From NCBI GenBank assembly GCA_903906305.1, contig CAIVJR010000005.1, forward strand, positions 6,485 through 70,484: 64,000 nucleotides of DNA. The letters are read 5' to 3'. Each line of letters opens with the position of its first letter. Positions within the stretch are counted from its first letter, which is position 1. The DNA is from an uncultured bacterium. Its GTDB lineage: Bacteria; Patescibacteriota; Dojkabacteria; SC72. Made by a program: the position numbers and the translations under genes. The notes under the pieces are model-generated. The model was not told where the DNA came from and searched no databases. It worked only from the letters and a program-made list of their open reading frames with translations. Shown piece by piece: positions 6,039 to 47,301 of the stretch.

Positions 6039-6821
6039 CTAGTAATCTAAGTCTGTCCATACATTCTGGACATCATCATATTCTTCTAATCTCTCTATAG
6101 CATTCTGTGCTTTTTCTAATTCCTCACCTTCTAATTTCTTGTATATCTTAGGTTCTTTAACAATCTCAGCTTCTTTTAATACAAAACCTAATTTACTAAT
6201 ACTATCTCTAACCTGTGCCAATTGATTATATTCTGTATATATTTCAAACCCCTTAACACCATCCATATCTATTTCTAGAATATCCAATATTCCAGGAATA
6301 TCCATAAGCATCATCATCACACCTTCAGATTCATCAGCGACAAATATATCCTCACCACCAAATTTCTCAGATTTTTGCATATGACCAGACTTAACAACAA
6401 TATATCCCTTAGTTTCAAAATTCCAATCAACGGCTCCCTCAGAACCAATATTTCCCCCTATTTGATCAAATATCTGTCTTAATTCAGCAACAGTTCTGTT
6501 CTTGTTATCACTAATAGTATCTACTATTAATTGAATACCGCCAGGGCCAAAACCCTCATAGGATGCTTCTTCAAACACTACTCCACTATCTCCACCACCG
6601 GCACCCTTCTCTATAGCTTTTTCTATTCTGTCCATAGGAAAACTAGCATCTCTGGCCTTATCAATATACAATCTCAAATTAGGATTCATATTTGGATCTC
6701 CCCCGCCCTGTCTAGCAGCATGAGTAATCTGAACGGAAAGTTTAGAGAATGCTTGACCTTTTTTAGCATCATTTAAAGCTTTCTTATGCTTAATCGTATC
6801 CCATTTGGAGTGTCCTGACAT
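6039..6821 (-). CDS. yebC: YebC/PmpR-family DNA-binding transcriptional regulator
   Basis: The N-terminus reads MSGHSKWDTIKHKK, typical of the family. The 260-aa length and the position next to ruv genes fit. Confidence 0.9.
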   Translation of the reverse strand: MSGHSKWDTIKHKKALNDAKKGQAFSKLSVQITHAARQGGGDPNMNPNLRLYIDKARDASFPMDRIEKAIEKGAGGGDSGVVFEEASYEGFGPGGIQLIVDTISDNKNRTVAELRQIFDQIGGNIGSEGAVDWNFETKGYIVVKSGHMQKSEKFGGEDIFVADESEGVMMMLMDIPGILDILEIDMDGVKGFEIYTEYNQLAQVRDSISKLGFVLKEAEIVKEPKIYKKLEGEELEKAQNAIERLEEYDDVQNVWTDLDY

Positions 6822-6877: not shown

Positions 6878-9430
6878 TTAAATCTTTACTGTATACTTCT
6901 TTTTCTCTTCCTCTTTCTTAGGCTCAACCTTGGGTTCTTCTTTCTTGACTTCTTCCTTTTTAGGTTCAATCCTGGGTTCTTCTCTTCTTTCAACCGGTTT
7001 ATGTTCTTCGTTATTCAAAGGTACTGACCTATTCCCCTTTTCACTGTATGTTTGATTACTCCATTTTTGGATTTTGTCTTCGATAACTTCCCTATCCATA
7101 CCATATTTCTCTCTCGATTTTTCAATGATCTCTTGTTTACAATCAAATTTCTGATACCTAACTGGTAATGATTTTGCACTAAATGGTATTGATGTCATAC
7201 CATCAATACAAAGCTTTACATACATAGCATGGGAATCTAAAGATACTAAGTCGTCTGAAGAAACCACAGGAGCAAATTCTTTTTCCAATATAGAAGCATC
7301 TGATTGACTCACCACAAATGAACCCAAAGTTCCTACATTACCAAAGATAGCCTGCCTTACTGTTAAAGGTAATTGATCGATGTATTGGTTAGTCATTGTA
7401 AGACTTAAGTGATATTTTCTAGCTTCTGAAAGTATCTTTGCAAAAGAATCTGTCGCAAAATTCTGGAATTCATCAACATACAAGAAGAAATCTTTTCTCT
7501 CTGATTCTGGCATATCGACTCTTTCCATCGCGGTAGCTTGCAATCTTGTAATGATCATTCCTCCTAAGAGTGCAGCAGTTTCCTCTCCTAATCTTCCTTG
7601 TGCAAGATTAACCAAAAGAATCTTTCGGTTATCCATTATCTCTCGCAAATCTATAGTTGATTTAACCTGTCCAATGATATTTCTAGTAACTGCAGAAGAT
7701 ATGAATCTTCCAACTTTGTTTTGAATAGGTGCTACTGCCTCTGCAAGTAATCTCGGATTCTGGGACATCTGAGCAAATTCTTCTGTCCAAAACTTGTAAA
7801 GAATTGGGTCATTTACCTGTTTCAATATGAACTTTCTGTAGCTATTGTCTATTAACATCCTAGTCACTGCTAGCAACGTAGTTCCTTGAGCTTCTAAAGC
7901 GGTAGCTATTGTATTAACAAGAATATATTGAAGTCTTGGTCCCCATGAATCACCAAATTGTTTTTTAAATACTTCTACTACCCCATCAGCTATCAAATCT
8001 CTCTGAGATTTATCCTTAAGTTCTAAAAGATTGAAGCCCACAGGATGGTCTACATCGGTAGGGTTAAAGTAAATTACATCATCTATACGATTGGGCGGAA
8101 TATGATCTAGAAGATCCTCTACAGTGTCTCCGTGAGGGTCTACAAAGCAGGCTCCATCTCCGGCCAATATGTCAGAAATGAACATATTCTTAAAGACTGT
8201 AGATTTACCCACACCGGTTTTACCTAAAAGATAGAAATGGCGTGCACGATCAGCTTTCTTTAAACCAAATTGCACCATAGCTCCTCTGTAGTCTGTTTCT
8301 CCAAAGATAGTTACATCACCGTCCTTTGCAGTTGGCATATTCATAGGTGGTTCAAGCTTTCGAGATCTACTCCATGCAATGTTTGGTGTTTCTACAGAGA
8401 TATTTGGTAAGTGATACAAAGAAGCTAGCTCTTCAATATTTAATATATCTGGTTCATCCGCATCCATATGTCTGATTACATATTCATCATATATTTCCTT
8501 CCCTGTTTTAGTAGGTTTAGAATGTATGAAGTTATTGAGATGTGCAGTAGTAAATTGTTTGAAACTTGCAGTGACATCTCGAAGAATTTGTTCGGATCTT
8601 TCTTGAGTTTCAGCTTTGGTAACCACACGAATCTTAACCTCAAAACCGAGTTTAAGCATTTTAGTTTCAATCTCTTTCAACTCTTCTTCCTGCCCTGGTT
8701 CAAGTTTAACAACCTCTTTTTTTGCAGGACTGGATTCACTTGTAGAAAGAGTATTTCCTAACTTTACCAATCCGCTGACAATTCGACTAAAGATAGTTTC
8801 TCCATTAATATTTTTGCCCTCTTTTATAGCGGTAATATATTTCTTTGAATCTTTTTGCCAAAAGTTTGAAACTGGTCTAATGACTATCTGTAACCATGCT
8901 TTCTCCCCCTTTGAGAGGTCAGACATAGCTCCCGTAATTGCTGCAAGTGGGTCTACTTCAAAATTTCTAAATGTCTTAATTGGGAATATGGAATCTTTCT
9001 CCATTTCAATCTCTCCGCATGTTACAAAGGTATCATCATTTCCGTTAGCTCGTGTGGCATAGTCTTCAACATAGCTAATATCCGCATTTGGATACTGAGC
9101 ATACATCTGTCCTTCTACAAACTTTGCGAGATGTTTTGGCGTAACAATGTAGAAACGAATACCATCGTCATCACTGGAGATAATTTCAAAACTGATAATG
9201 TCCTCCCCCCTTACCAAATCTCCTAGAATTCCATGTACTGAAGCAAACATCTGTTCTGCTGCTAATGCTGATTTGTCGTTTTCTCGAGGAACCAAAACTT
9301 GCAGTACCAAAGGACTTCTAATATCTTCAAAAACTGATTGTTCTACTTTGTTCGCTTTGCTTCCCCAAATCAATATAAAGGCAACAAAGGCCCCAGCAAA
9401 GATTAAAAGTATTAACATGGCTGCAATCAT
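6878..9430 (-). CDS. Membrane-anchored P-loop ATPase of the FtsK/HerA/VirD4 (type IV coupling protein-like) superfamily, with a Lys/Glu-rich repetitive C-terminal tail
   Basis: An N-terminal TM helix is followed by a Walker A (GKTGVGKST) and the downstream motif CFVDPHGD, which is typical of TraG/VirD4/HerA ATPases. The C-terminus carries EPKKEE/VKKEEPKVEPKKEE repeats. Confidence 0.6.
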   Translation of the reverse strand: MIAAMLILLIFAGAFVAFILIWGSKANKVEQSVFEDIRSPLVLQVLVPRENDKSALAAEQMFASVHGILGDLVRGEDIISFEIISSDDDGIRFYIVTPKHLAKFVEGQMYAQYPNADISYVEDYATRANGNDDTFVTCGEIEMEKDSIFPIKTFRNFEVDPLAAITGAMSDLSKGEKAWLQIVIRPVSNFWQKDSKKYITAIKEGKNINGETIFSRIVSGLVKLGNTLSTSESSPAKKEVVKLEPGQEEELKEIETKMLKLGFEVKIRVVTKAETQERSEQILRDVTASFKQFTTAHLNNFIHSKPTKTGKEIYDEYVIRHMDADEPDILNIEELASLYHLPNISVETPNIAWSRSRKLEPPMNMPTAKDGDVTIFGETDYRGAMVQFGLKKADRARHFYLLGKTGVGKSTVFKNMFISDILAGDGACFVDPHGDTVEDLLDHIPPNRIDDVIYFNPTDVDHPVGFNLLELKDKSQRDLIADGVVEVFKKQFGDSWGPRLQYILVNTIATALEAQGTTLLAVTRMLIDNSYRKFILKQVNDPILYKFWTEEFAQMSQNPRLLAEAVAPIQNKVGRFISSAVTRNIIGQVKSTIDLREIMDNRKILLVNLAQGRLGEETAALLGGMIITRLQATAMERVDMPESERKDFFLYVDEFQNFATDSFAKILSEARKYHLSLTMTNQYIDQLPLTVRQAIFGNVGTLGSFVVSQSDASILEKEFAPVVSSDDLVSLDSHAMYVKLCIDGMTSIPFSAKSLPVRYQKFDCKQEIIEKSREKYGMDREVIEDKIQKWSNQTYSEKGNRSVPLNNEEHKPVERREEPRIEPKKEEVKKEEPKVEPKKEEEKKKYTVKI

Positions 9431-26241: not shown

Positions 26242-27042
26242 CTAACGTAATCTTTTTCTGATAACACTCACACCCGTATTCAACTCTATCTCCTCCTTAG
26301 CCTTTCTAGCAACCTTACCACCCTTCTTTGCAACTACCCTGTTCTCTTCCAATCCCTTTGGTATATCCTTCTTAGATATTTCAGTAGTAGATGCTTCTGC
26401 TAACATATTTAGAATTAATTCTAAATTAGTCATATTATCCCTTAAATTCTCTTTCTTCAAACCCTTGTATTCTTTCAATTCCTTAACTGATTTACCAGTC
26501 CAAGCCTTGGTAATCTCATTTGTTAATATTGCAAAGTCTCTTCCCTCATTCATACCTCTTTCTTGCCATTCATCAGTTAATTCTTTTCTAACTTCAATAC
26601 TTTTTAATCGTTGATTAATCCAATCTCTTGAATATCCCTTATTTAGATATGTCTTCATCGCCCTATCAAATGCCAATTCTGGGTCTTCTGTTTCTTCAAT
26701 TCTTTCATATCCTACCTTGGCTAACCAAACTTTAAATGGTTCTGCTTTAGGAGATGGAATTGATTGAATTAGTCGCAAGATTGTCTCTGTATCTGCTACG
26801 TCTGTTAAATATGTCTTACCATCAGAGGATTTTAGTCGCAGTTGTCCCATCTTTTGGGACAACTGACTTCCTTCTTCTTGTTGCAACTTGATTTTCAAAG
26901 CATTCCAGTACTTTCTTGGTCTAGGACTATCTGTAAGCACTTGAATTATGTCTATTACAGAGAAATACCAGAGTTCTCTCTTTTTATCCCAGTGTCTTCG
27001 TATTGTTTTTTGATTGAATAGTATGATGGATTTTTCTTTCAT
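26242..27042 (-). CDS. Bro-N domain protein (DinD / phage antirepressor-like)
   Basis: The N-terminal block FNQKTIRRHWDKKRELWYFSVIDIIQVL matches the Bro-N/DinD-type motif (F..IR....GE.WF...D....L). Confidence 0.6.
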   Translation of the reverse strand: MKEKSIILFNQKTIRRHWDKKRELWYFSVIDIIQVLTDSPRPRKYWNALKIKLQQEEGSQLSQKMGQLRLKSSDGKTYLTDVADTETILRLIQSIPSPKAEPFKVWLAKVGYERIEETEDPELAFDRAMKTYLNKGYSRDWINQRLKSIEVRKELTDEWQERGMNEGRDFAILTNEITKAWTGKSVKELKEYKGLKKENLRDNMTNLELILNMLAEASTTEISKKDIPKGLEENRVVAKKGGKVARKAKEEIELNTGVSVIRKRLR

Positions 27043-27130: not shown

Positions 27131-28222
27131 CTATTTGTTCGCAAGAATAATAATATAATCACCATCCTGTACAATATAATCCTTACCATGATTCTTAACC
27201 AAACCCAATTCCTTAGCCTTAACCCAACCACCAGCATCTAATAAAGCATCAACATTAACCACATCAGCAGTAATGAAATTGTTTTCCAAATCAGTATGTA
27301 TAACCCCTGCAGCCTCCTTAGCATTAGCACCCTTCTCAATAGTCCACGCATTACACTCCTTCTCAGATCCGGTATAGAAGGTTATGAGGTTGAGAGCATC
27401 GTATGCCCCCTTAATAATATCTTTAACGGATTTAGGAACATAACCTAGTAATTCTGCATACTCATCTGCATCTTCCATCTCCCCTACCAATTTTACATCC
27501 GCCATTATAACTAGATCACCCGTTTTTTCTTCTAATTCCTTCTTCCATACTTCAATCTTCTCACTCTCCAGCCCTTCCTTACAATTCAATACAAACATTC
27601 TCTTCTTACTAGTTAACAACCAAAGGTCATATACATATTCCTTCTCTTTCTCATTCATTTCCATATCTACCACAGGAATACCCATACCCAAATTCTTTTG
27701 TATCTTTTCCAATATATTCATCTCTAATGCAGCATCTGCATTCCCTATTCTGGCCATCTTGTTTACACTAGCTATCTTCTTTTCAACAACCTCAATATCT
27801 TTGAATATGAGTTCTGCTTGTACAATTTCAAAATCTTCAACAGGATTTACTCTCTCATATACATGCACTATCTCTTTACTTTCAAAAGCTCTAAGTACAT
27901 ACATAATGACATCGGTCTCTCTAATGTGTGAAAGGAATTGATTTCCTAATCCTTCTCCTTTGGATGCTCCTTTAACTAATCCTGCAATATCTACAAATGT
28001 CATAGCTGAAGGTACAATCTTCTTAGCATTGAAATATGCAGACATTCTTCCTAATCTTTCGTCAGGTATTTCAACTACTCCTACGTTTTTATCTATGGTA
28101 CAAAAAGGAAAATTTTCTGCTGGTACTGTTAATTTGGTTAGTGCATTAAATATTGTAGATTTTCCTGAATTAGGAAGTCCTACAATACCTAGAGACAATG
28201 AGTGTGATCTTTTTACTGACAT
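27131..28222 (-). CDS. ychF: Ribosome-binding ATPase YchF (Obg-family GTPase)
   Basis: G1 motif GIVGLPNSGKSTIFNALT, a helical insertion and a C-terminal TGS domain. The 363-aa length fits. Confidence 0.9.
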   Translation of the reverse strand: MSVKRSHSLSLGIVGLPNSGKSTIFNALTKLTVPAENFPFCTIDKNVGVVEIPDERLGRMSAYFNAKKIVPSAMTFVDIAGLVKGASKGEGLGNQFLSHIRETDVIMYVLRAFESKEIVHVYERVNPVEDFEIVQAELIFKDIEVVEKKIASVNKMARIGNADAALEMNILEKIQKNLGMGIPVVDMEMNEKEKEYVYDLWLLTSKKRMFVLNCKEGLESEKIEVWKKELEEKTGDLVIMADVKLVGEMEDADEYAELLGYVPKSVKDIIKGAYDALNLITFYTGSEKECNAWTIEKGANAKEAAGVIHTDLENNFITADVVNVDALLDAGGWVKAKELGLVKNHGKDYIVQDGDYIIILANK

Positions 28223-28843: not shown

Positions 28844-30715
28844 ATGAAAAAACTGTTCATATATATATTCAGTATTCTCTCCTTCTTCCTACTCTTCTCA
28901 ACCAAAGTATTAGCTAAATCCTCAGACTTTGTCATAGACTCAAACACAGATATCACATATACCACAGGAGAGACATTTGTATCAGTAATAACCAAATACA
29001 CAAGAACAGTAGCTAACAATGATTATTTCTACCCTGCTACTGGAGAAAAGGTTTTCAATATCCCTGACCTACCAAGTAGTACAGAAGAAGAAATAACTGC
29101 AGAAAGAAAATACAAACTAGATTCATTAAAGGTAACAAATTCCTTAGGAGGAACAGTAAAATATACCACTGAAGAACAAGCACAAGGCTCAGGAATATAT
29201 ATTAAAGTTCCTAATTACAAACAAACCACATCCAGTTCACCATATTCAATACAGATCGCTTACAATACTCATGACTTTGTTACTAAAGTAGCAAATTACA
29301 TAACACTTCAAGCCCCAGCATTACCTAAGGATGTCATATTTGAACAAACAGATACTACTACAAATACACAAACTACCTTTAACTATGGATTAAATATACT
29401 TGTAGATGACAAGATAGCTCCACTTGCAAAGGTATATCCTTCTCAATTCACTCAAGCTACAAAAAATGGTAAAACAACATACTCATTTGCTCAAGAAAAT
29501 CGAATTGGAAATTCACCATACATGGAGTTTGGAACATCCGTAACCTACAAATTTGCACTAACATATACCACACCAAAAACAGATACGTTAGTACCTGAGA
29601 GTTTAACTAATGTATTTAAATCTCTCTCCACAAATATATTTGAGATCTCCTTACCAAGAGAATTTGATGAAACAGATCAAAAGGTATATTTCACTAATGT
29701 ATCTCCTACTCCATCCAATATATATAAAGATGATGAAGGAAATATCATTGCATCATTTGAGGTACCAGCAAATACCATAGGGACCATAACCCTAGAAGGA
29801 TATATTGTCACAAATCAAGATGCATACAATACTACTCCAATCAATGTAAATATCGATTGGTCTAAATACAAAGAAACCATATCCAAAGCATCATATTTAA
29901 AGAACTATCTAAGTGCTACAAAGTATTGGCAGAGTAATGATGCAAATATTAAAGGAGAAGCTGAGAAGTTGATGGCCGACAAGGCGACGGTATTGGATAT
30001 CATAAAAGCAGACTATGCATATATTGGTGAGAAACTTACATACGATGACAACAAGGCAAATTCTGAAAACGAAAGAATCGGAGCAAAAGCAGCACTCGAG
30101 GGTGGTGCTTCTGTATGTATGGAATATGCAGATTTAATGATTGCTCTACTTAGAGCTCAGGGTATTCCTGCTAGAGCAGCTTTAGGATATGCAAATATTA
30201 CTGAAACTCAGGAAGCTCAAGTAAGACATCAATGGGTACAGGTTTGGATTCCAGATTACGGTTGGTATTCTGTAGATCCTACTCTAGAGAGTAACAATAT
30301 GAGGTTGGGACAGAGTATTGATCGTGTGCTTTGGGAGGTTTTTAATGGTGATACACTTTCAAATATTAAGGTGTTTTCTGCAGACAATATTGATGTGTTA
30401 ACTACAGATGGGTATAACCTAAATATATATGGCGTTAGTGATACGGATATTGATTTTACCAAGTTACAGACATATACCGATTTAGTACCAGAGAAAGGAT
30501 ATGAATCTACAGAGGATATTCCCTCTTCTAGTAAGTATGGGTTTGGTCAATGGTTAAATACATTCCTTAAGACTACTACAATTGGTAAGGCAGTTATAAT
30601 CACGGGTCCTGTTATTATCCTTGTATTGGTAGTTTCAGTTATTGTAGCTGTTACTAAGAATACGGTTAGAAGAATGAAGAGGAAGAAATTGAATAGTACA
30701 ACTATTCAAGGGTAA
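28844..30715 (+). CDS. Secreted transglutaminase-like cysteine protease-fold protein with a C-terminal TM anchor
   Basis: A signal peptide precedes a transglutaminase-core block (GGASVCMEYADLMIALLRAQGIPARAALGY...HQWVQVWIPDYGWYSVDPT, the Cys-His-Asp arrangement). A C-terminal hydrophobic helix is followed by a basic tail. Confidence 0.7.
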   Translation: MKKLFIYIFSILSFFLLFSTKVLAKSSDFVIDSNTDITYTTGETFVSVITKYTRTVANNDYFYPATGEKVFNIPDLPSSTEEEITAERKYKLDSLKVTNSLGGTVKYTTEEQAQGSGIYIKVPNYKQTTSSSPYSIQIAYNTHDFVTKVANYITLQAPALPKDVIFEQTDTTTNTQTTFNYGLNILVDDKIAPLAKVYPSQFTQATKNGKTTYSFAQENRIGNSPYMEFGTSVTYKFALTYTTPKTDTLVPESLTNVFKSLSTNIFEISLPREFDETDQKVYFTNVSPTPSNIYKDDEGNIIASFEVPANTIGTITLEGYIVTNQDAYNTTPINVNIDWSKYKETISKASYLKNYLSATKYWQSNDANIKGEAEKLMADKATVLDIIKADYAYIGEKLTYDDNKANSENERIGAKAALEGGASVCMEYADLMIALLRAQGIPARAALGYANITETQEAQVRHQWVQVWIPDYGWYSVDPTLESNNMRLGQSIDRVLWEVFNGDTLSNIKVFSADNIDVLTTDGYNLNIYGVSDTDIDFTKLQTYTDLVPEKGYESTEDIPSSSKYGFGQWLNTFLKTTTIGKAVIITGPVIILVLVVSVIVAVTKNTVRRMKRKKLNSTTIQG

Positions 30716-30805
30716 ATATATCATTTTACAAACATAAGAAGATAACCAGGGGTGTTCTATATAAATACAAAACACCCCAATGGTGAAGTTTTTGGTTATC
30801 TTCAA

Positions 30806-31087
30806 CTAAAATACTAGCTGCAGAAGTGGGACTCCCAGAATAATCCAAGGAATCATCACAAGAATAGCTACAATTTGTCCTAACATTGCTAATATTGTAG
30901 AAATTCCGGCTTTCTCTTTATGGACAAAGATAATTAGTAACGATGCACAAATTATAATCGTAGTACCAATGATTACACGGCAAAATAATGATTGTGCAAT
31001 CTGTGGCATAGAAAAAGCAGCCAAAGCAAAAACTAATTCTACAAAAGCTGGTATTGATTGAAGTGCATATTTCAAATTCTTTTTCAT
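30806..31087 (-). CDS. Small membrane protein
   Basis: 93 aa with three hydrophobic helices. Confidence 0.35.
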   Translation of the reverse strand: MKKNLKYALQSIPAFVELVFALAAFSMPQIAQSLFCRVIIGTTIIICASLLIIFVHKEKAGISTILAMLGQIVAILVMIPWIILGVPLLQLVF

Positions 31088-31303
31088 GTCTCCTCCTGAG
31101 AAAACATCCTAAATTTCCCCACACACGCGTGTGAAGTTTTATTGGATAACCAAAACAAAGAGATAAATACATCTTTAAATGAACAAAGTCATAAAGAAAA
31201 TCTCCTTGTGTTTGAAAATGATATTTTTAAAGAGCAGTTATTCTTTAACTACTCTATTATACCTTTTTTAAAGGGAAACCTCAACGCTATGGGCCCTGTC
31301 CGT

Positions 31304-32815
31304 CTAAGTTATCTCATACATCTTTTCAAGATCTACCGCGCTTTTACCATTCTCTAGCCTATCATCCGCAGTAGCATACATAGTAAACAAAACATCCCCC
31401 TTAGACACAGCCTCACCCGGCATTTTGTGAATATATAGTCCAGCCTCCTTAATACGAGGACAACCCAAAGCCCTAGCAATATTAACAATCTCAACACTAC
31501 TAATCATCTTAACAGTACCATCCTTAGTAGACACAACCTCAGCGCTAAGATTCCCTGCCTTAATCTCACTAGACTTAGTTATCTTCTTTGCACCCTGTGC
31601 AAAACCAATCTCCCAGAACTTCTCATATGCTTTCTTCGAATCCAAAAGTGTTTGAGCAAGTACTTTACCCTCCCCCTCAGTGGAGATACCCGTAGCTTCA
31701 AACAATATACCCGCCATATCTATGACTACTCTTTCCATTTCCAATGATGCACTGCTGTCTCTTTCAAGTATCTTCAAAGCTTCAATGATCTCAAGGTTAG
31801 GACCAATACCCCTACCATCAGGGCCATTAACCTTACGAGTAGTCGTTTCACACTCAATACCAAATTTCTTAAACAGTTTCTTAAATTCCTTAGCCAATTT
31901 GAATACATCCTCAGTAACCTCAACCTTACTACCCTTACCATATGGAAGATCGATTAAAATATTCTCAATACCCAATGCAACCTTCTTAGCTACAATACTC
32001 ACAAGTACCTTTTGATATTCTTGGATACGAAGAGATCTTTCAACATTAATAATTACATCATCTGCAGGAGATATACTCAAAGAACCACCCCAGAACAAAC
32101 AACCACCCGTCTTCTCTACAACCTTCATTATTTCCTCCTCAGTGAGCGATACAGGCATAATAACCTCTAAGATGTCTGATGTGCCAGAGGGAGATGTAAT
32201 TGCTCTAGAAGAGGTATTAGGGACGATCAAACCACCAGCTACAAGTATGGGTACTAATACAGGAGTAACACCCTTTCCCGCAACACCACCAATCGAGTGT
32301 TTGTCTGCAATGACACTACCCTTACCTTTAAATTTTTTAAATGACAATGAATCCCCAGACTGTGCCATACCCTGTGTCATCCAATATATCTCCTCATCAT
32401 TGAAACCTGGATTAAAGAATGTAGAAATGAAGAAAGCGATTTCTGTTTCTCTCAATCTACGAGATGCAATCTCTTTCATAATGAGTTCTAAATCTTCCTT
32501 TGTCAGGTCATGCCCTAAGAGTTTTCTACTTATGGCCTCGAGTGCTTTACTTCGTTCAGGAATATCCACAAATACAGTACTACCTTCCACAATCAGATAC
32601 TCCTTCCAAATCTCTTCAAACAATCCAATTTCACCCTGATGTACTCTCTCCTCTGTTTCTAAAACATTGGCATACAGATCAGCATCCCCTATTCCAAGGT
32701 ATACCAATTCCCCTTCTTTTACTCCAATTTTTTCAGCATCTTTCCTATGTAAAACAACATTAAAGCTATTATCCTCGCCCAAATCCAATATTTTGCTTCT
32801 TAAGTAGAAAGACAT
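31304..32815 (-). CDS. AMP phosphorylase (archaeal-type DeoA-family nucleoside phosphorylase with an N-terminal extension)
   Basis: Thymidine-phosphorylase-family blocks (DKHSIGGVAGKGVTPVLVPILVAGG, SSRAITSPSGTSD) plus an approximately 80-aa N-terminal domain typical of about 500-aa AMP phosphorylases. The gene is adjacent to an e2b2-family isomerase. Confidence 0.75.
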   Translation of the reverse strand: MSFYLRSKILDLGEDNSFNVVLHRKDAEKIGVKEGELVYLGIGDADLYANVLETEERVHQGEIGLFEEIWKEYLIVEGSTVFVDIPERSKALEAISRKLLGHDLTKEDLELIMKEIASRRLRETEIAFFISTFFNPGFNDEEIYWMTQGMAQSGDSLSFKKFKGKGSVIADKHSIGGVAGKGVTPVLVPILVAGGLIVPNTSSRAITSPSGTSDILEVIMPVSLTEEEIMKVVEKTGGCLFWGGSLSISPADDVIINVERSLRIQEYQKVLVSIVAKKVALGIENILIDLPYGKGSKVEVTEDVFKLAKEFKKLFKKFGIECETTTRKVNGPDGRGIGPNLEIIEALKILERDSSASLEMERVVIDMAGILFEATGISTEGEGKVLAQTLLDSKKAYEKFWEIGFAQGAKKITKSSEIKAGNLSAEVVSTKDGTVKMISSVEIVNIARALGCPRIKEAGLYIHKMPGEAVSKGDVLFTMYATADDRLENGKSAVDLEKMYEIT

Positions 32816-32832
32816 AACTAGTTAGTAAAAAA

Positions 32833-33780
32833 TTATCTATCAAATATCCAAGGATATTTCTCCTTGACTACTGCGTCCACTTCAGACGGTTTAACTATAC
32901 CAAATTCTGTCACAAAACCAGTAATTAGGACATTATCCACAATCTCAAATGCCGGATTATATATCTCCAAACCCTTAGGAGCATCTGGCCATATCTCTGA
33001 GTCTTCTCTTACTTCAATTTCAATATTTCCGATGTATGAGCTTTCATCAATTTTAAGCAAAGGCGTAATTATATATACCGGTTTATCTGCATAGTGAGCA
33101 CTCATGGCTATACTCCAGCTTCCTATCTTGTTTATGACATGGCCACCTTTGACGATCTGATCACACCCTATGAATACTGTGTCTACAAGGACATTTCCAC
33201 GACCAATTATGAATGAGTCCGCAGCACTATCTGTAATCATCGTTGTTTTAATTCCTGCATTCACTAAATTCTTTGCAGTAATCCTGCCCTGCATTCTTGG
33301 TCTAGTTTCTGTGCACACTACCTCAAACTCCTTATCCTTATGTGACAATTCTTTGATCAATGTTTCTACCGTTGAAGAGTGACAATGTGTAAAAATATTG
33401 TCGTAGTTTTTGAGGTAATCCTTTGACTTATCCACAATACTCTTCTTAGTTTCGGAAATCATATCAAGGTACTGAGCGCATAGCTCATCAAGCCTTGGTT
33501 TCATAGTGGACACCTCTGGTAAAACAGGGAACTCTTTGTCAAAGAAGTACTTTATGAACCTTACCCCATTTTTAGCTAATGGTTCATTAGGTCTAGCTTT
33601 TGAAAGCTTGTCCCCTACCTGAAAGAATTCATCATGTATCTTTTGTTTGTCTGTTTCTTTGGTTAAGGAGAGATACAATTTCATTCCTTCGAACACTGCA
33701 ATGGCAACATTGGTTGCCCCTTGGATGTTCAACTTTTGTATATCCTCATATATTTTGTCTATCTGTGTGTATACTTCCAT
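32833..33780 (-). CDS. Ribose-1,5-bisphosphate isomerase (eIF-2B alpha/beta/delta-like, e2b2 family)
   Basis: The eIF2B-like fold blocks GATNVAIAVFEG, CHSSTVETLI and TDSAADSFI are present. The gene directly follows the AMP phosphorylase, as in the AMP salvage pathway. Confidence 0.7.
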   Translation of the reverse strand: MEVYTQIDKIYEDIQKLNIQGATNVAIAVFEGMKLYLSLTKETDKQKIHDEFFQVGDKLSKARPNEPLAKNGVRFIKYFFDKEFPVLPEVSTMKPRLDELCAQYLDMISETKKSIVDKSKDYLKNYDNIFTHCHSSTVETLIKELSHKDKEFEVVCTETRPRMQGRITAKNLVNAGIKTTMITDSAADSFIIGRGNVLVDTVFIGCDQIVKGGHVINKIGSWSIAMSAHYADKPVYIITPLLKIDESSYIGNIEIEVREDSEIWPDAPKGLEIYNPAFEIVDNVLITGFVTEFGIVKPSEVDAVVKEKYPWIFDR

Positions 33781-33781
33781 A

Positions 33782-35209
33782 CTACTTTAATTCAAATTCT
33801 TCATTAACATTAGGTACTATCGTTTCGATCTGTGTATCTTTGTAAATTTTGTCTGCAAATTCTTCTGCTACCTGTTCATCACCATGAGTTATGAATATTT
33901 GCTTTGGAGTATGTCCAAAACTTCCTAACCAGTATGACAAATCTCGTTCATCACCATGGGCAGAGAATCCTCCCAGAGTATGTACTTGTGCATTGTTTTC
34001 ATATTCTCTTCCGAATATTCTTACAACTCTCTCACCATCCATAATCTTTCTCCCCAATGTCCCTTGTACCTGATATCCAACAAAGACTACATGGGTTTTA
34101 CTGTTTTCAATATTGTTCTTAAGATGATGCATAATTCTTCCACCTGTACACATTCCACTTCCTGCCATAATGACTATTCCTCGCTTGGATATTAATCGTT
34201 TTGATTCTTCAGCATCCTCAACTATATGCAATCCTGGGAAATCAAATGGATCGTCTCCTTTGTTTAGTAATCGTTTAGCATCCTCATCGTAAAAATCTGG
34301 ATATTGTTTGAATATGGCAGTAGCTTTTGAAGCCATTGGACTGTCTAGATATATTGGCAAACCCGAGAGTAAGCGTTGTTCTACAAAGAGATTAATTTCA
34401 TACAATATCTCCTGAGCTCGTTCAATTGCAAAGGTTGGAATGAGTACAACACCTTCACTCTTTTGTGCTTGTTGTAATATGGCAAGTAATTCTAAAAGTG
34501 TTTCATTTCTGTCTCTGTGTAACCTATTCCCATATGTGGATTCACAAATGACATAGTCTGCTTCGCGGATTAGGTCTGGATCTTTTACAATACGTGCACC
34601 TGGTTGACCTAGGTCTCCAGAGAATACAATTTTTCTAGTTCTCTCTGCCTCATTTTTTACCCAAAACTCTATGCTTGCAGAACCAATGATATGTCCAGCA
34701 TCTCTGAGTCTGAATTCAAAATGATTGTTAATATTTACTGATGTGCTGTATGGATATACCTCAAAGAGTTGAGCCATTGCTTCGACGTCTTCGGTAGTGA
34801 ATAGTGGTTTTCGATTTGTATAGAAGGATTCTTCTTCTACCTCTGCTTCGGTCATTCCTCCTTCTTTTGCCCTTGAGGTCCATCTTTCATAGTCTTCTGC
34901 CTGAATATGTGCAGCATCTAGGAGTACTACCTTAGCTAGATCTCTAGTTGGTTGAGTACATACTATTCTTCCATGGAATCCTTGTTTTACAAGAACTGGT
35001 AATCTTCCACAGTGATCAAAGTGTGCATGGGTTAGGAATACAAAATCTAATGTAGCAGGATCAAAAGGAAAGGCTTCATAGTTCATTGCTTCATTCTCAT
35101 GGGAGCCTTGATATGCTCCACAGTCTACGATGAATTTTAGTTCTCCAGTATCTACGTAATAGCAGGATCCAGTAACGTTTTTAGCAGCTCCACAGAATTT
35201 TAACTTCAT
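33782..35209 (-). CDS. MBL-fold beta-CASP family ribonuclease (RNase J / CPSF-like)
   Basis: HAHFDHCGRLP (HxHxDH) near the N-terminus, downstream beta-CASP-like blocks, and a 475-aa length. Confidence 0.75.
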   Translation of the reverse strand: MKLKFCGAAKNVTGSCYYVDTGELKFIVDCGAYQGSHENEAMNYEAFPFDPATLDFVFLTHAHFDHCGRLPVLVKQGFHGRIVCTQPTRDLAKVVLLDAAHIQAEDYERWTSRAKEGGMTEAEVEEESFYTNRKPLFTTEDVEAMAQLFEVYPYSTSVNINNHFEFRLRDAGHIIGSASIEFWVKNEAERTRKIVFSGDLGQPGARIVKDPDLIREADYVICESTYGNRLHRDRNETLLELLAILQQAQKSEGVVLIPTFAIERAQEILYEINLFVEQRLLSGLPIYLDSPMASKATAIFKQYPDFYDEDAKRLLNKGDDPFDFPGLHIVEDAEESKRLISKRGIVIMAGSGMCTGGRIMHHLKNNIENSKTHVVFVGYQVQGTLGRKIMDGERVVRIFGREYENNAQVHTLGGFSAHGDERDLSYWLGSFGHTPKQIFITHGDEQVAEEFADKIYKDTQIETIVPNVNEEFELK

Positions 35210-35271: not shown

Positions 35272-35535
35272 CTACTTGAATGACATTACCACAAATCCTA
35301 ATTCATCAATATCTTCCTGACTCCAGAATCTTAAATCCTTAGTTTTCATTACAAAGGTAACTGTTTTTTCCATCTGTCTCCCGGTATATTCCTTGATTTC
35401 AGAATCCCATTCCCTCAATACTAATACATCCCCTACTTCACATTCAAATTCAGCTATTCTTAAATCAAAATTCTTTTCTCCATTGAGTACTTTTTCAAAA
35501 AGATCTGGTACTGTCTTTTTCTCAATCCTTCTCAT
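35272..35535 (-). CDS. Small ASCH/DUF3850-like (PUA-fold) protein
   Basis: 87 aa. The block KNFDLRIAEFECEVGDVLVLREW resembles the ASCH/DUF3850 beta-barrel. Confidence 0.4.
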   Translation of the reverse strand: MRRIEKKTVPDLFEKVLNGEKNFDLRIAEFECEVGDVLVLREWDSEIKEYTGRQMEKTVTFVMKTKDLRFWSQEDIDELGFVVMSFK

Positions 35536-35557: not shown

Positions 35558-36982
35558 TTAAATATTTGCTAATTTCTTAGCATTTTCAATCAATTTCTCC
35601 TTGGTATTGAGCATTGGGTCTTCTAGTACCATGTCTAGTAATTCTTTCAATATTTTTCCTAATTCAGGACCTCTTTCAATACCAATACTTACTAAATCTT
35701 CTCCTGTAATCTTTAAATCTGCCACCTTGAATGCCATATCTTGTTGCAACACGGTAGATATTCTTTGTTGAAGCAATGTAATTTCTTCTGGTTTAAAAGC
35801 AGTCATTGGATTGGATTGAGCATCGGCCAAACGTAGCTTAAACAGGTCATCAATGTTGTCGATTCCTACTCTTTGTATGAATCTTCTAACAGCAGAATCG
35901 GACCATTGGTGTAATTCAATATTGTTCTTCTCCTCTTCAGTCATATCATCTTGCATGTGTGGGTAGTAGAACATATGGTTCTTGATTAACAATATCACTC
36001 GCTTTACTTCTGCTTGTGGGAATTTCATTCTTCTTAATATCTCTTCTACCATCTGTGCACCCATTGCATCATGACCATAGAAATGGCCATTCCCCATATC
36101 TGTCCTTGGTTTTGCGATATCATGTAGCAAGGCTGCGAGTTTTACACTGTCATGTGCAGAGTCGCATGTTCTAAGGCTATGCCAATATACATCATCGCTA
36201 TGGAACATTTTTTGTTCTACACCTAAACCTTCTAGAAGTTCTGGCATGAACAATCGGAGTAATCCGGCCTGTCGCATTAAATCTATGCCTACAGATGGCT
36301 TAGAAGACTTTAAAAGGGTCTTCATGAATTCATCTCGGATACGTTCCATGGATACTTGAGCTGCCACTGGCACGCACTCAACTATGGCTTTGAATGTTTC
36401 TTCGTCAATCTCAAAACCAATCTGGGAAGCTAGTCTGCATGCTTTAAAAGCACGAAGTCCATCTTCTTTAAATCTTTCTAATGGTGTGCCAACTGCACGT
36501 ATTTTCTTCAATTCGATATCCTTAATACCATCATATGGATCGTATACCTCCACCTCTATCTCTTCTTTACTTCCTTCTAGATCAAGACTTCCTAGGTCTA
36601 TTGCCATTGCATTAATGGTGAAATCTCTCCTACCCAAATCCTTATCTATCTCCTTTACAAATTCAATATTTGTAGGCCATCGTCCATCAATGTAGTCGGA
36701 TTCACTTCTAAATGTTGTAACTTCTACTTCCATTGTTTCTCCATGACTGTCTTGGACCAATGCCATAACGGTACCGAATTTAGCACCAACAGATACTGAT
36801 TTAGGAAATATATTTAGCATTTCATCAGGTAATGCATCTGTAGCAAGATCGTAATCATGAGGGTCTAATCCCATGACAACATCTCGTACAGCACCTCCAA
36901 CAAGGTAGCATTCAAAGCCCTCTTTACTGAGCATTCTACTTACTTTTTGTACATATTCTGGAATTTGTATTCTTACTTTCAT
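35558..36982 (-). CDS. cca: CCA-adding tRNA nucleotidyltransferase with an HD domain
   Basis: Pol-beta-type head YLVGGAVRDVVMG...DYDLAT and an HD phosphohydrolase block (HSLRTCDSAHD...LAALLHDIAKP). Confidence 0.85.
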   Translation of the reverse strand: MKVRIQIPEYVQKVSRMLSKEGFECYLVGGAVRDVVMGLDPHDYDLATDALPDEMLNIFPKSVSVGAKFGTVMALVQDSHGETMEVEVTTFRSESDYIDGRWPTNIEFVKEIDKDLGRRDFTINAMAIDLGSLDLEGSKEEIEVEVYDPYDGIKDIELKKIRAVGTPLERFKEDGLRAFKACRLASQIGFEIDEETFKAIVECVPVAAQVSMERIRDEFMKTLLKSSKPSVGIDLMRQAGLLRLFMPELLEGLGVEQKMFHSDDVYWHSLRTCDSAHDSVKLAALLHDIAKPRTDMGNGHFYGHDAMGAQMVEEILRRMKFPQAEVKRVILLIKNHMFYYPHMQDDMTEEEKNNIELHQWSDSAVRRFIQRVGIDNIDDLFKLRLADAQSNPMTAFKPEEITLLQQRISTVLQQDMAFKVADLKITGEDLVSIGIERGPELGKILKELLDMVLEDPMLNTKEKLIENAKKLANI

Positions 36983-45552: not shown

Positions 45553-46174
45553 ATGGTTTCTCTTGGAATCTGTTATTCATAAAGTAGCCTAAAACAAAGA
45601 TAAGCACAATGAAAACGAACAATATAAATGATTGAACTTTAGATATCTTTTGAATATCTTGTTTTGACTTAACTTCACAAACTTCACCAGGACAGTATTG
45701 TGCCTTCTCCTTAAAAAAGAGCGGATAAAATTTACAACCTAAACAAATTCCAAAGACTGATTCAAAGAAGAGGAATATGAGACAAGTAAGACAAGTAATG
45801 CTCGCAATTGGGCTATATGCATTTATGATAATGAAATGGACAAACATTGTGCTTACTAATACTACACCAATTACCCAAGCAAACTTCTTCTGAGCCGCTC
45901 CTACATATTCAGGGGTTTGGTTTCTGACAACCCATCGTCCAAAGATTAGGAATGGTGAGTATTTGGGATTTATGAAAACCCTTATAACAAAATCTACAAG
46001 AAAAAGAGTTATGACATACTTAAGTGGCACAAAGTTCTCCTGAAACAGGATAAACATCCATGATATGAAGGCAGCCAAGAACATTATTCCTGCGGCGGCT
46101 CGTATTTCTCGTTCATTTAGAACTCGAATGTTGTAACCTTCTACATCTTCACCGAATTGAAATATTTTTTTCAT
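45512..46174 (-). CDS. DUF4395-like membrane protein with a C-terminal Cys cluster
   Basis: TM helices plus the block FGICLGCKFYP followed by CPGEVCE. Confidence 0.4.
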   Translation of the reverse strand: MKKIFQFGEDVEGYNIRVLNEREIRAAAGIMFLAAFISWMFILFQENFVPLKYVITLFLVDFVIRVFINPKYSPFLIFGRWVVRNQTPEYVGAAQKKFAWVIGVVLVSTMFVHFIIINAYSPIASITCLTCLIFLFFESVFGICLGCKFYPLFFKEKAQYCPGEVCEVKSKQDIQKISKVQSFILFVFIVLIFVLGYFMNNRFQEKPYDLFGIYGTEQTK

Positions 46175-46722
46175 TTTGAAGTAGTTATAGATTTATTAAA
46201 TCCCTTTATCATTAACCATCCTGCAAGGAATAGTTCATTGGTTATGATGAGAACCATTAGTACATCTAATATTGGTGAGGTTATTCCTACCAATTTTGCT
46301 ACATTGTTTATCAACAACATCCCACATGCTACTAGACCCCATATAGATATGAAGCGTGGTACGAGTTTAGTTTTGAATAACAGGATATAGAACAGGAATG
46401 CACTTATGATAAAGACATAGGTTTGTGGGTAGTTATATATCCAACTTCTCCAATCTGTAGATAAATTACTTAAAAGAAGTATTCCAGCTGCAATCATCAA
46501 TGCTCCTTCTAAAACCTTCATTGCTATATATCCAATGGTAAGTCCTTTGTTTGAAGTTTTAAAGAAAGGGAATAATAATATTGTGATGCCAATTACTGCT
46601 AATCCACTGATTACATCTAGAAGTGTTGTTACCCATTTTATATCTGTAACTCCGCTAGCAAGCATGCTGTATGCTACTAGGATTAGGATTCCTACAATTA
46701 TTGCCTTTGTTCTATTACTCAT
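46171..46722 (-). CDS. Polytopic membrane protein
   Basis: 183 aa with five hydrophobic helices. It overlaps the downstream gene by 4 bp. Confidence 0.4.
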   Translation of the reverse strand: MSNRTKAIIVGILILVAYSMLASGVTDIKWVTTLLDVISGLAVIGITILLFPFFKTSNKGLTIGYIAMKVLEGALMIAAGILLLSNLSTDWRSWIYNYPQTYVFIISAFLFYILLFKTKLVPRFISIWGLVACGMLLINNVAKLVGITSPILDVLMVLIITNELFLAGWLMIKGFNKSITTSK

Positions 46723-46791
46723 ACCTTTTTAAATAATATTATTTGTCTAATATTGCCAAAGAAAAGTATGGGAGTCAATAAAGGTAAAAAA

Positions 46792-47232
46792 CTATTGTTT
46801 GATATATTTCAATATTTTCTCCAATACACCATCTAGGTTCTCCCATGAAAGTATCTTTAATCCTTCTTCTATACCCATCCATAATATCTCCATACCAGAA
46901 TCTGATTCTGCATTGGTTAATACTCTTTCTATCTTCTTCGCACTCTTTAGTATAGCTAGGAAATAGTGGTCTGTTTTATGTACATCCTTATTCCAAGATA
47001 ATATGTAATCATTTATACCTACTGGTTCTATTATCTGTATATCACAATATCCTGTTTCTTCTGATGTTTCTCTCTTAGCTGCTTCTTCTAATGTTTCCTT
47101 TCCTTCTACATGTCCCTTAGGTAATACATATTTCTCTTCACCTTGTAATTTGGTTCTATGTATTACTAAGAGCTCATATCTATCATTATTCTTTCTTAAG
47201 AGATAACAGCCTGCAGATGTGTGTTCTTCCAT
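46792..47232 (-). CDS. NUDIX hydrolase
   Basis: Nudix box GHVEGKETLEEAAKRETSEETG (Gx5Ex7REUxEExGU). Confidence 0.8.
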   Translation of the reverse strand: MEEHTSAGCYLLRKNNDRYELLVIHRTKLQGEEKYVLPKGHVEGKETLEEAAKRETSEETGYCDIQIIEPVGINDYILSWNKDVHKTDHYFLAILKSAKKIERVLTNAESDSGMEILWMGIEEGLKILSWENLDGVLEKILKYIKQ

Positions 47233-47301
47233 ATGATTAATTATATTCCCTTTGTTATATATTTGCGATATATTTAAGTAATAAGATTATAAAATATATC
47301 T

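Follow-up and report, generated by a model that had tools for sequence, protein, structure and literature searches.

Two adjacent genes in a 64,000-nucleotide stretch of DNA from a tiny-genome bacterium of Candidatus Dojkabacteria (forward-strand positions 6,485 to 70,484 of contig CAIVJR010000005.1, assembly GCA_903906305.1; this whole stretch is referred to as the window) very probably code for the enzymes that catalyze the first two steps of the archaeal-type salvage pathway for adenosine monophosphate (AMP), the pentose-bisphosphate pathway. [quoted passage not shown] Both genes are located on the minus strand. The first in direction of transcription (32833..33780) codes for a ribose-1,5-bisphosphate (R15P) isomerase-type protein of 315 aa from the e2b2 / PF01008 family. 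The second (31304..32815) codes for an AMP phosphorylase-type protein of 503 aa, which belongs to the DeoA superfamily and carries the archaeal N-terminal domain. An earlier sequence-only reading had reported a 503-aa phosphorylase and an isomerase at 31304-33780, in exact agreement with the list of open reading frames (ORFs). Its description of a phosphorylase followed by an isomerase is correct in plus-strand coordinates, but in the direction of transcription the isomerase precedes the phosphorylase. The reading had also proposed that the pair catalyzes the steps from AMP via R15P to ribulose-1,5-bisphosphate (RuBP). This proposal is supported by the phosphorylase tree and by the alignment, profile and fold comparisons of the isomerase.

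In the proposed mechanism, the 503-aa enzyme would split nucleoside monophosphates (NMPs; AMP, probably also CMP and UMP) by phosphorolysis into the free base and R15P. The 315-aa enzyme would then convert R15P to RuBP using Cys133 and Asp207. A form III-related RuBisCO, which we infer to be encoded in this genome outside the window, would be expected to turn RuBP into two molecules of 3-phosphoglycerate feeding lower glycolysis and ATP formation. From the stop codon of the isomerase gene to the start codon of the phosphorylase gene there is a spacer of only 17 nt (32816..32832, minus strand), and because of this tight spacing both genes are presumably co-transcribed, with the isomerase leading. 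A gene for a beta-CASP ribonuclease, the stop codon of which is found 1 nt ahead of the isomerase ATG, is probably part of the same transcript.

Family assignment of the phosphorylase and the isomerase

Three Pfam domains of the phosphorylase exceeded their gathering scores, namely Glycos_trans_3N (PF02885), Glycos_transf_3 (PF00591) and PYNP_C (PF07831). The best solved relative is the AMP phosphorylase of Thermococcus kodakarensis (PDB 4GA5; E 3e-87, 296 bits), and residues 8-489 of our protein align with residues 6-479 of this structure, N-terminal domain included. Pyrimidine and thymidine phosphorylases reached at most 110 bits, with alignments beginning only at residue 85-97. The N-terminal extension of this DeoA-family enzyme that had been noticed from the sequence is real and aligns, over residues 1-84, with the domain at the N-terminus of the archaeal enzyme. 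It is absent from Escherichia coli DeoA, a Bacillus pyrimidine-nucleoside phosphorylase (PyNP) and a Mycoplasmopsis thymidine phosphorylase (TP), which show 1 aligned residue across columns 1-84. The motifs of the window phosphorylase (HSIGG, TSSRAITSPSGTSD, WGG..PADD and PYGKGSKV) are of the archaeal AMP phosphorylase type and unlike those of TP and PyNP. Common to the window and archaeal enzymes are the forms HSIGG, TSSRAITS.(S/A)GT.D, WGG...PADD and G.G.KV, and the TP/PyNP counterparts read HSTGG, SGRGLGHTGGT.DK and G.GAFM. Among the NCBIfam models, the cutoffs of TIGR02645 (455.2; cutoff 434.6) and NF003338 (447.7; cutoff 434) were exceeded.

A neighbour-joining (NJ) tree of 26 sequences with 200 bootstraps was calculated. 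Its sampling included a haloarchaeal AMP phosphorylase, Thermococcus and Methanosarcinales proteins, a Legionella protein with the N-terminal domain, and the E. coli, Bacillus and Mycoplasmopsis references named above. The family sharing the N-terminal domain was split from TP/PyNP at 100% bootstrap. The window phosphorylase falls inside this family, which also holds the T. kodakarensis and haloarchaeal AMP phosphorylases, within a clade of sequences from the Candidate Phyla Radiation (CPR). Hence, it does not join the ordinary thymidine phosphorylases, a placement that would have spoken against the sequence-only reading. CPR and archaeal proteins were grouped to the exclusion of the Legionella-type protein with 52% support only.

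The isomerase matched the Pfam family IF-2B with 195.6 bits. Its best sequence matches in the PDB are the R15P isomerases 5YFJ of Pyrococcus horikoshii (E 1e-34) and 3A11 of T. kodakarensis (E 2e-33). These two scored 119-123 bits, as compared to at most 98 bits for proteins of the methylthioribose-1-phosphate isomerase (MtnA) type. A family profile built from eight Dojkabacteria sequences widened this difference to about 50 bits, with 181.6 bits for 3A11, 177 bits for 5YFJ and at most 130 bits for MtnA (2YRF, 129.9 bits). The alignment to the NCBIfam model TIGR00511 (ribulose_e2b2) extends from end to end (2-301 of 301), whereas matches to the MtnA models start at profile position 27-45.

The functional residues of the archaeal R15P isomerase PH0208 have been described (PMC5789824). 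Cys135 and Asp204 are catalytic, Ser137 and Lys240 bind the 5-phosphate, and Arg22, Arg65, Gln166, Asn214 and Lys215 are ligands of the 1-phosphate and the sugar. The catalytic pair aligns with C133 (in THCHS) and D207 (in GCDQI) of the window protein, both of which are invariant in 18 relatives. The 5-phosphate ligands are kept as S135 and K243, whereas Ala and Ser/Thr are found at these positions in the MtnA references, which are annotated proteins from mtnK-mtnA loci. R63, Q164, N217 and K218 are the retained counterparts of four further ligands. Two insertions characteristic of MtnA, namely some 35 beta-rich residues added at the N-terminus and 8 residues inserted after the catalytic Cys (CNAGxxAT), are both absent from the window isomerase and from all CPR relatives aligned. 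The CPR isomerases in turn share an insert of 5 residues that is absent from the archaeal enzymes and includes an invariant Arg-Gly (R194-G195 in the window).

An AlphaFold2 model of the isomerase (pLDDT 90.7) was compared to the PDB with Foldseek. Ranks 1-13 were all occupied by R15P isomerases and the first MtnA appeared at rank 27. Superposition with the substrate-bound R15P isomerase gave TM scores of 0.87-0.89. In a small NJ tree, the CPR isomerases (73%), the MtnA proteins (98%) and the Thermococcales R15P isomerases (100%) formed separate clades, the order of which was not settled by this tree with its two archaeal references. Since the MtnA clade excludes the window isomerase, and the order of the three clades is unsettled, the tree argues against MtnA and by itself is no proof of an archaeal link. 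Judged from its sequence, the protein clearly is not an MtnA. A grouping with MtnA, which would have contradicted the sequence-only reading, was not obtained in the tree, and the missing insertions, the profile scores and the Foldseek ranking speak for an R15P isomerase. As to the placement of both enzymes against the Thermococcus proteins, which that reading had suggested as a check, the phosphorylase is a member of the N-domain family shared with archaea, and the CPR isomerases form a clade separate from that of the Thermococcales enzymes.

Gene order, RuBisCO linkage and alternative explanations

The neighbourhood of the pair was surveyed in one genome per species of the GTDB, which returned 80 loci. 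Those 46 with a phosphorylase at least 45% identical to that of the window are called related. In 43 of the 46 the isomerase gene is found directly upstream of the phosphorylase gene, with tblastn gaps of 16-86 nt. This does not apply to the Thermococcus loci and those of more distant CPR. In one of these (L057) the isomerase lies 85 nt downstream of the phosphorylase, and in the others none was found within 10 kb. The pair belongs to a conserved block consisting of a CCA-adding enzyme, in part of the cases a DUF3850 protein, the beta-CASP ribonuclease, the isomerase, the phosphorylase, a convergent transglutaminase-like gene and YchF. Across the Dojkabacteria loci, the beta-CASP gene directly precedes the isomerase gene, except for one locus (L049) in which RuBisCO intervenes. 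Comparison of both window genes to close relatives gave dN/dS ratios of 0.04-0.11, which indicates strong purifying selection.

Homologues of both proteins stem from Candidatus Dojkabacteria / candidate division WS6, in line with the attribution to CPR that had been made from the sequence. The nearest GTDB species representative (CAZSUV010000002.1) bears the pair with 98% amino-acid identity. Metagenome-assembled genomes (MAGs) of WS6 from the Rifle aquifer are also close. GW2011_GWC2_36_7 and UR96 contain proteins more than 90% identical, with 95% identity over a partial gene in the case of GW2011_GWC2_36_7. In many MAG records with the Dojkabacteria block (among L010-L067) the title reads 'uncultured Candidatus Saccharibacteria bacterium'. 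For several others it is 'uncultured Gammaproteobacteria bacterium' (e.g. L061 and L064), and their phosphorylases cluster at 100% with a sequence of Komeilibacteria (CPR). The taxonomy of these records looks unreliable.

In other CPR genomes, orthologues of the pair are linked or fused to RuBisCO. Among the 46 related loci, only L049 contains a RuBisCO, which is of form III-c and passed the TIGR03326 cutoff (tblastn). It is inserted between the beta-CASP gene and the isomerase gene, resulting in the order rbcL-e2b2-deoA (L049:5760-9594). Two further Dojkabacteria contigs were found via RuBisCO homologues. L097 carries RuBisCO in the same block between isomerase and phosphorylase (e2b2-rbcL-deoA; L097:4924-9597), and L098 has a form III-c RuBisCO directly upstream of the phosphorylase gene, adjoining a serine recombinase gene (L098:3164-5961). 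The different positions of the form III-c RuBisCO within the block in distant Dojkabacteria, together with its absence from the window's clade, suggest repeated insertion, rearrangement or loss at this locus. Moreover, two proteins (P0300, 726 aa; P0304, 742 aa) are fusions of an isomerase with RuBisCO, the isomerase part showing the Gln motif of the CPR type.

Several observations weigh against the assignment of the pair to the AMP pathway. No RuBisCO was found across the 64-kb window by a motif regex, by tblastn and phmmer --max with the T. kodakarensis RbcL, or by Pfam analysis of the larger ORFs. The RbcL query had been checked against PDB 1GEH (1023 bits), and an additional tblastn query was a form II sequence of R. 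rubrum. The earlier statement that no RuBisCO is adjacent to the pair can thus be extended to the entire window. In the loci of the window's clade, comprising about 45 species, tblastn detected no RuBisCO up to 10 kb from the pair either, and eight further metagenome loci of the JGI (6.7-12.3 kb, retrieved by an exact 28-mer scan) were equally free of it. At the protein level, Arg22 of PH0208, one of four 1-phosphate ligands, is replaced by Gln20 in the window isomerase. The AMP-activator site of PH0208 at the trimer interface (R124, R190, K194, R229 and W231; PMC5789824) is not kept, with Y122, D, V, D232 and P234 at the aligned positions, and any activation by AMP would have to involve different residues. 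The isomerase scored 170.9 on TIGR00511, below the cutoff of 314.1, and the phosphorylase scored 456.7 on TIGR03327 (AMP_phos, the archaeal equivalog), below the cutoff of 535. In the NJ tree, the CPR isomerases were not joined specifically to the Thermococcales R15P isomerases.

Some of these features are common to the CPR enzymes in general. Gln20 is invariant across the CPR isomerases, also in those that neighbour RuBisCO or are fused to it. Isomerase orthologues from RuBisCO operons scored 161-166 on TIGR00511, and CPR phosphorylase orthologues from such operons scored 455-470 on TIGR03327. Since orthologues linked to RuBisCO score equally below the thresholds, the low scores are no argument against function, and the shortfall on TIGR03327 is typical of the CPR clade.

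The missing RuBisCO leads to the question whether the window represents a variant of the pathway. In the sub-lineage of about 45 species, RuBisCO may have disappeared from an ancestral block of beta-CASP / e2b2 / rbcL / deoA, perhaps even from the whole genome, and the pair may be kept for base salvage or for an unrecognised enzyme using R15P or RuBP. We regard this as unlikely, although it is in line with several results. In the window and among the species of its clade, no RuBisCO occurs in the block that holds one of form III-c in L049, L097 and L098. None of the 120 best relatives (clusters) of a Dojkabacteria form III-c RuBisCO could be tied to the window's clade or to its large contigs, or attributed to the 93%-identical MAG JAHISI01, a result that applies to form III-c only. 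The Rifle relatives, GWC2_36_7 and others, are absent from the RuBisCO-bearing WS6 genomes in Table 1 of PMC5113843, and deoA and e2b2 were reported to be inherited vertically with a patchy distribution of RuBisCO (Jaffe 2019, PMC6389311).

On the other side, the effective screen covered form III-c only, and Dojkabacteria have also been reported with RuBisCO of forms III-like and II/III. An exhaustive search of representative proteins yielded 150 clusters of RuBisCO and RuBisCO-like proteins, too diverse for a Dojkabacteria form III-like sequence to be recognised among them. That both genes are under strong purifying selection speaks for a complete pathway, and we know of no sink for RuBP besides RuBisCO. 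RuBisCO and AMP phosphorylase have been described as conserved in Dojkabacteria (PMC7304191). A RuBisCO encoded elsewhere in the genome, as predicted by the sequence-only reading, is therefore plausible, fitting both the literature and the selection on the pair. As the junctions on both sides of the isomerase gene (1 nt and 17 nt) are too tight, no remnant of a RuBisCO gene can be present at the pair itself. Should the loss nevertheless have occurred, it would imply an unrecognised fate of RuBP or R15P, or a role centred on base release. Two RuBisCO candidates for the window's clade were dropped in the course of the search, being archaeal or of high GC content. The only form II/III-like representative came from DPANN archaea, and each of its 120 top relatives shared 76% identity or more with it.

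Two other explanations would remove the pair from the AMP pathway altogether. If the isomerase were an MtnA and the phosphorylase an ordinary pyrimidine or thymidine phosphorylase, the genes would serve methionine and nucleoside salvage. The labels of relatives at NCBI ('thymidine phosphorylase' and 'translation initiation factor eIF-2B') and the top NCBIfam model of the isomerase, the MtnA-named mixed subfamily TIGR00524 (177 bits, below the cutoff of 185.85), point in this direction, as does a position of the CPR isomerase clade nearer to MtnA at 59% with the chosen outgroup of the NJ tree. This explanation is very unlikely, given the exclusion from the MtnA clade, the absence of the MtnA extension and insert, the Lys and Ser in place of Ser/Thr and Ala of MtnA, and the preference of the profile and fold searches for R15P isomerases. 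The separation of the phosphorylase from TP/PyNP at 100%, its extra N-terminal domain and the linkage or fusion of RuBisCO to orthologues argue likewise. True mtnA loci have mtnK adjacent, but neither an mtnK nor an mtnB gene appeared among those ORFs of the window that were scanned with Pfam.

The 315-aa protein could also be thought of as a non-catalytic regulatory or ligand-sensing protein resembling eIF2B, whose alpha, beta and delta subunits belong to the same Pfam family. The adjacency of the two genes would then merely reflect conserved synteny. Indeed, the whole 7-gene block, including the unrelated transglutaminase-like gene and YchF, is syntenic phylum-wide, so that the adjacency of the pair alone is weak evidence. 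A non-catalytic protein is extremely improbable nonetheless. The catalytic Cys133 is invariant, whereas eIF2B alpha has Ala or Gly at this position (PMC5789824). The ligands of the sugar and of the 5-phosphate are retained in full, those of the 1-phosphate in three of four cases, and isomerase-RuBisCO fusions occur. As far as we know, eIF2 is absent from bacteria. The assignment to the AMP pathway thus remains the preferred one for both genes.

Surroundings of the pair and other features of the window

Upstream of the pair, the minus strand carries the beta-CASP metallo-beta-lactamase ribonuclease gene (33782..35209; 475 aa, Pfam Lactamase_B, Beta-Casp and RMMBL). Further upstream lie the genes at the end of the conserved block, which were identified by Pfam and synteny and code for a DUF3850 protein (35272..35535) and an enzyme of the CCA-adding / poly(A) polymerase family with an HD domain (35558..36982), both also on the minus strand. 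The best NCBIfam match of the beta-CASP protein was the Cas14 model of type VII CRISPR (417 bits, cutoff 800), followed by archaeal aCPSF1. This ribonuclease could catalyze a first step that degrades RNA to NMPs feeding the phosphorylase. We give less weight to this idea because the unrelated transglutaminase-like gene and YchF are equally syntenic.

Downstream of the phosphorylase gene, a variable spacer (30749..31284, minus strand) holds a promoter-like site (31284..31256), a small ORF for a hydrophobic protein of 93 aa (31087..30806) and a strong terminator-like hairpin with a 13-bp stem (30778..30749), all in minus orientation. The distance between the phosphorylase and transglutaminase genes differs considerably between loci. 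It amounts to about 590 bp in the window (30749-31303), 67 bp in L007 and about 1.3 kb in the 98%-identical L048 (L048:11513-12830), where the matching spacer contains two other small membrane ORFs. The convergent gene for a transglutaminase-like membrane protein (28844..30715, plus strand; Pfam Transglut_core) delimits the block on its downstream side at a conserved position, and YchF (27131..28222, assigned by Pfam) is located beyond it. A protein with a Bro-N domain, a family associated with phages, is encoded between SSB and YchF (26242-27042).

The other genes of the window represent housekeeping functions typical of CPR, such as RuvABC, DnaB, a release factor (RF), HtrA, SSB, CysRS, RecR and DnaX. 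There was no glycolysis gene among the Pfam-scanned larger ORFs of the window. A XerD-like tyrosine recombinase is encoded at the window start (204-1541). Among housekeeping genes (RuvABC, YebC and LytR_C), an 850-aa protein (6878-9430) was found that contains the DNA-binding domain of TrwB/VirD4-type coupling proteins, and its relatives are labelled as type IV secretion system DNA-binding proteins. The lowest GC content of the window (0.32-0.34) was observed at 46000-52100, a stretch with DUF3800, GNAT, DUF5677 and DUF6602 genes that ends at a tRNA-Ser (51979..52067) and possibly represents an island of the integrated or the defence type. The DUF3800 gene (48452..49090, plus strand) is overlapped at its 3'-end by a match to the Rfam family DUF3800-IX RNA (58 bits) on the opposite strand (49080..49151). 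Every 2-kb bin of the window (1-64000) shows a negative GC skew and nearly all genes are located on the minus strand, as would fit a single replichore that is read opposite to the direction of replication.

Comparison with known systems

The AMP pathway of T. kodakarensis comprises the phosphorylase TK0353 (PDB 4GA4-4GA6), the isomerase TK0185 (3A11, 3A9C and 3VM6) and the form III RuBisCO TK2290. The window proteins resemble this system in that both enzyme families are present at full length, with the N-terminal domain of the phosphorylase and the Cys/Asp and Ser/Lys residues and the fold of the isomerase. RuBisCO is not encoded next to the phosphorylase in either case, none being found in any Thermococcus locus scanned. 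In contrast, identity to the T. kodakarensis enzymes is only 38% for the phosphorylase and about 26-28% for the isomerase. The genes are adjacent and co-oriented in the window, whereas no isomerase gene occurs within 10 kb of the phosphorylase gene in the Thermococcus loci. The window isomerase also differs from the archaeal R15P isomerase by Gln in place of Arg22, by the loss of the activator residues and by the 5-residue CPR insert.

MtnA, as represented by Bacillus subtilis 2YVK/2YRF and by loci of Bacillus, Caballeronia and Sinorhizobium, has the PF01008 fold, the Cys/Asp dyad and about 27% identity in common with our isomerase. Its N-terminal extension of about 35 residues, the CNAGxxAT insert, the Ser/Thr replacing the 5-phosphate Lys and the mtnK neighbour are all missing in the window. 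Likewise, E. coli DeoA and Bacillus PyNP share the glycosyltransferase-3 core and PYNP_C with the window phosphorylase but lack the N-terminal domain. The protein of the Legionella adelaidensis type has this domain and motifs of the AMP phosphorylase type. In contrast to the window protein, it is paired with a phosphoribosyl pyrophosphate (PRPP) synthetase instead of an isomerase, and it falls outside the group of CPR and archaea (52%). On an L. adelaidensis plasmid (L100:2965-5372), a gene annotated as 'thymidine phosphorylase family protein' with the N-terminal domain overlaps the ribose-phosphate pyrophosphokinase gene, which hints at a different role of this proteobacterial branch in the metabolism of nucleotide ribose.

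The clusters with a form III-c RuBisCO (L049, L097 and L098) consist of the same block as in the window, where RuBisCO is missing and e2b2 abuts both the beta-CASP gene and deoA. That this block carries a form III-c RuBisCO at either of two positions in other lineages, and none in the window's clade, is of modest comparative value and fits the published picture of vertically inherited deoA and e2b2 and a mobile RuBisCO. The window's clade is well suited for a clean check whether the two enzymes persist without RuBisCO.

The AMP pathway has been published for Dojkabacteria (PMC5113843; PMC6389311; PMC9868632). RuBisCO of forms II/III, III-like and III-c was reported in this phylum, with deoA and e2b2 inherited vertically and RuBisCO acquired laterally (PMC5113843, PMC6389311, PMC7304191, PMC9868632). 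Fusions of e2b2 with RuBisCO in CPR have been described as well (Jaffe 2019, PMC6389311). The role proposed for CPR is the conversion of nucleotide ribose to RuBP and further to 3-phosphoglycerate with formation of ATP (Wrighton 2016, PMC5113843; Jaffe 2019, PMC6389311). The species of the window is not contained in the 2016 table of RuBisCO-bearing WS6 genomes (PMC5113843). Because this salvage route is already described for the phylum, our finding is an ordinary one. It implies no new mechanism and marks the organism as a CPR bacterium living by fermentation and ribose scavenging, a lifestyle already proposed for Dojkabacteria. Pathway and gene pair are known for this phylum, and with regard to phylum, the deoA and e2b2 genes and their role, the window differs in nothing essential from the published Dojkabacteria system (PMC5113843, PMC6389311).

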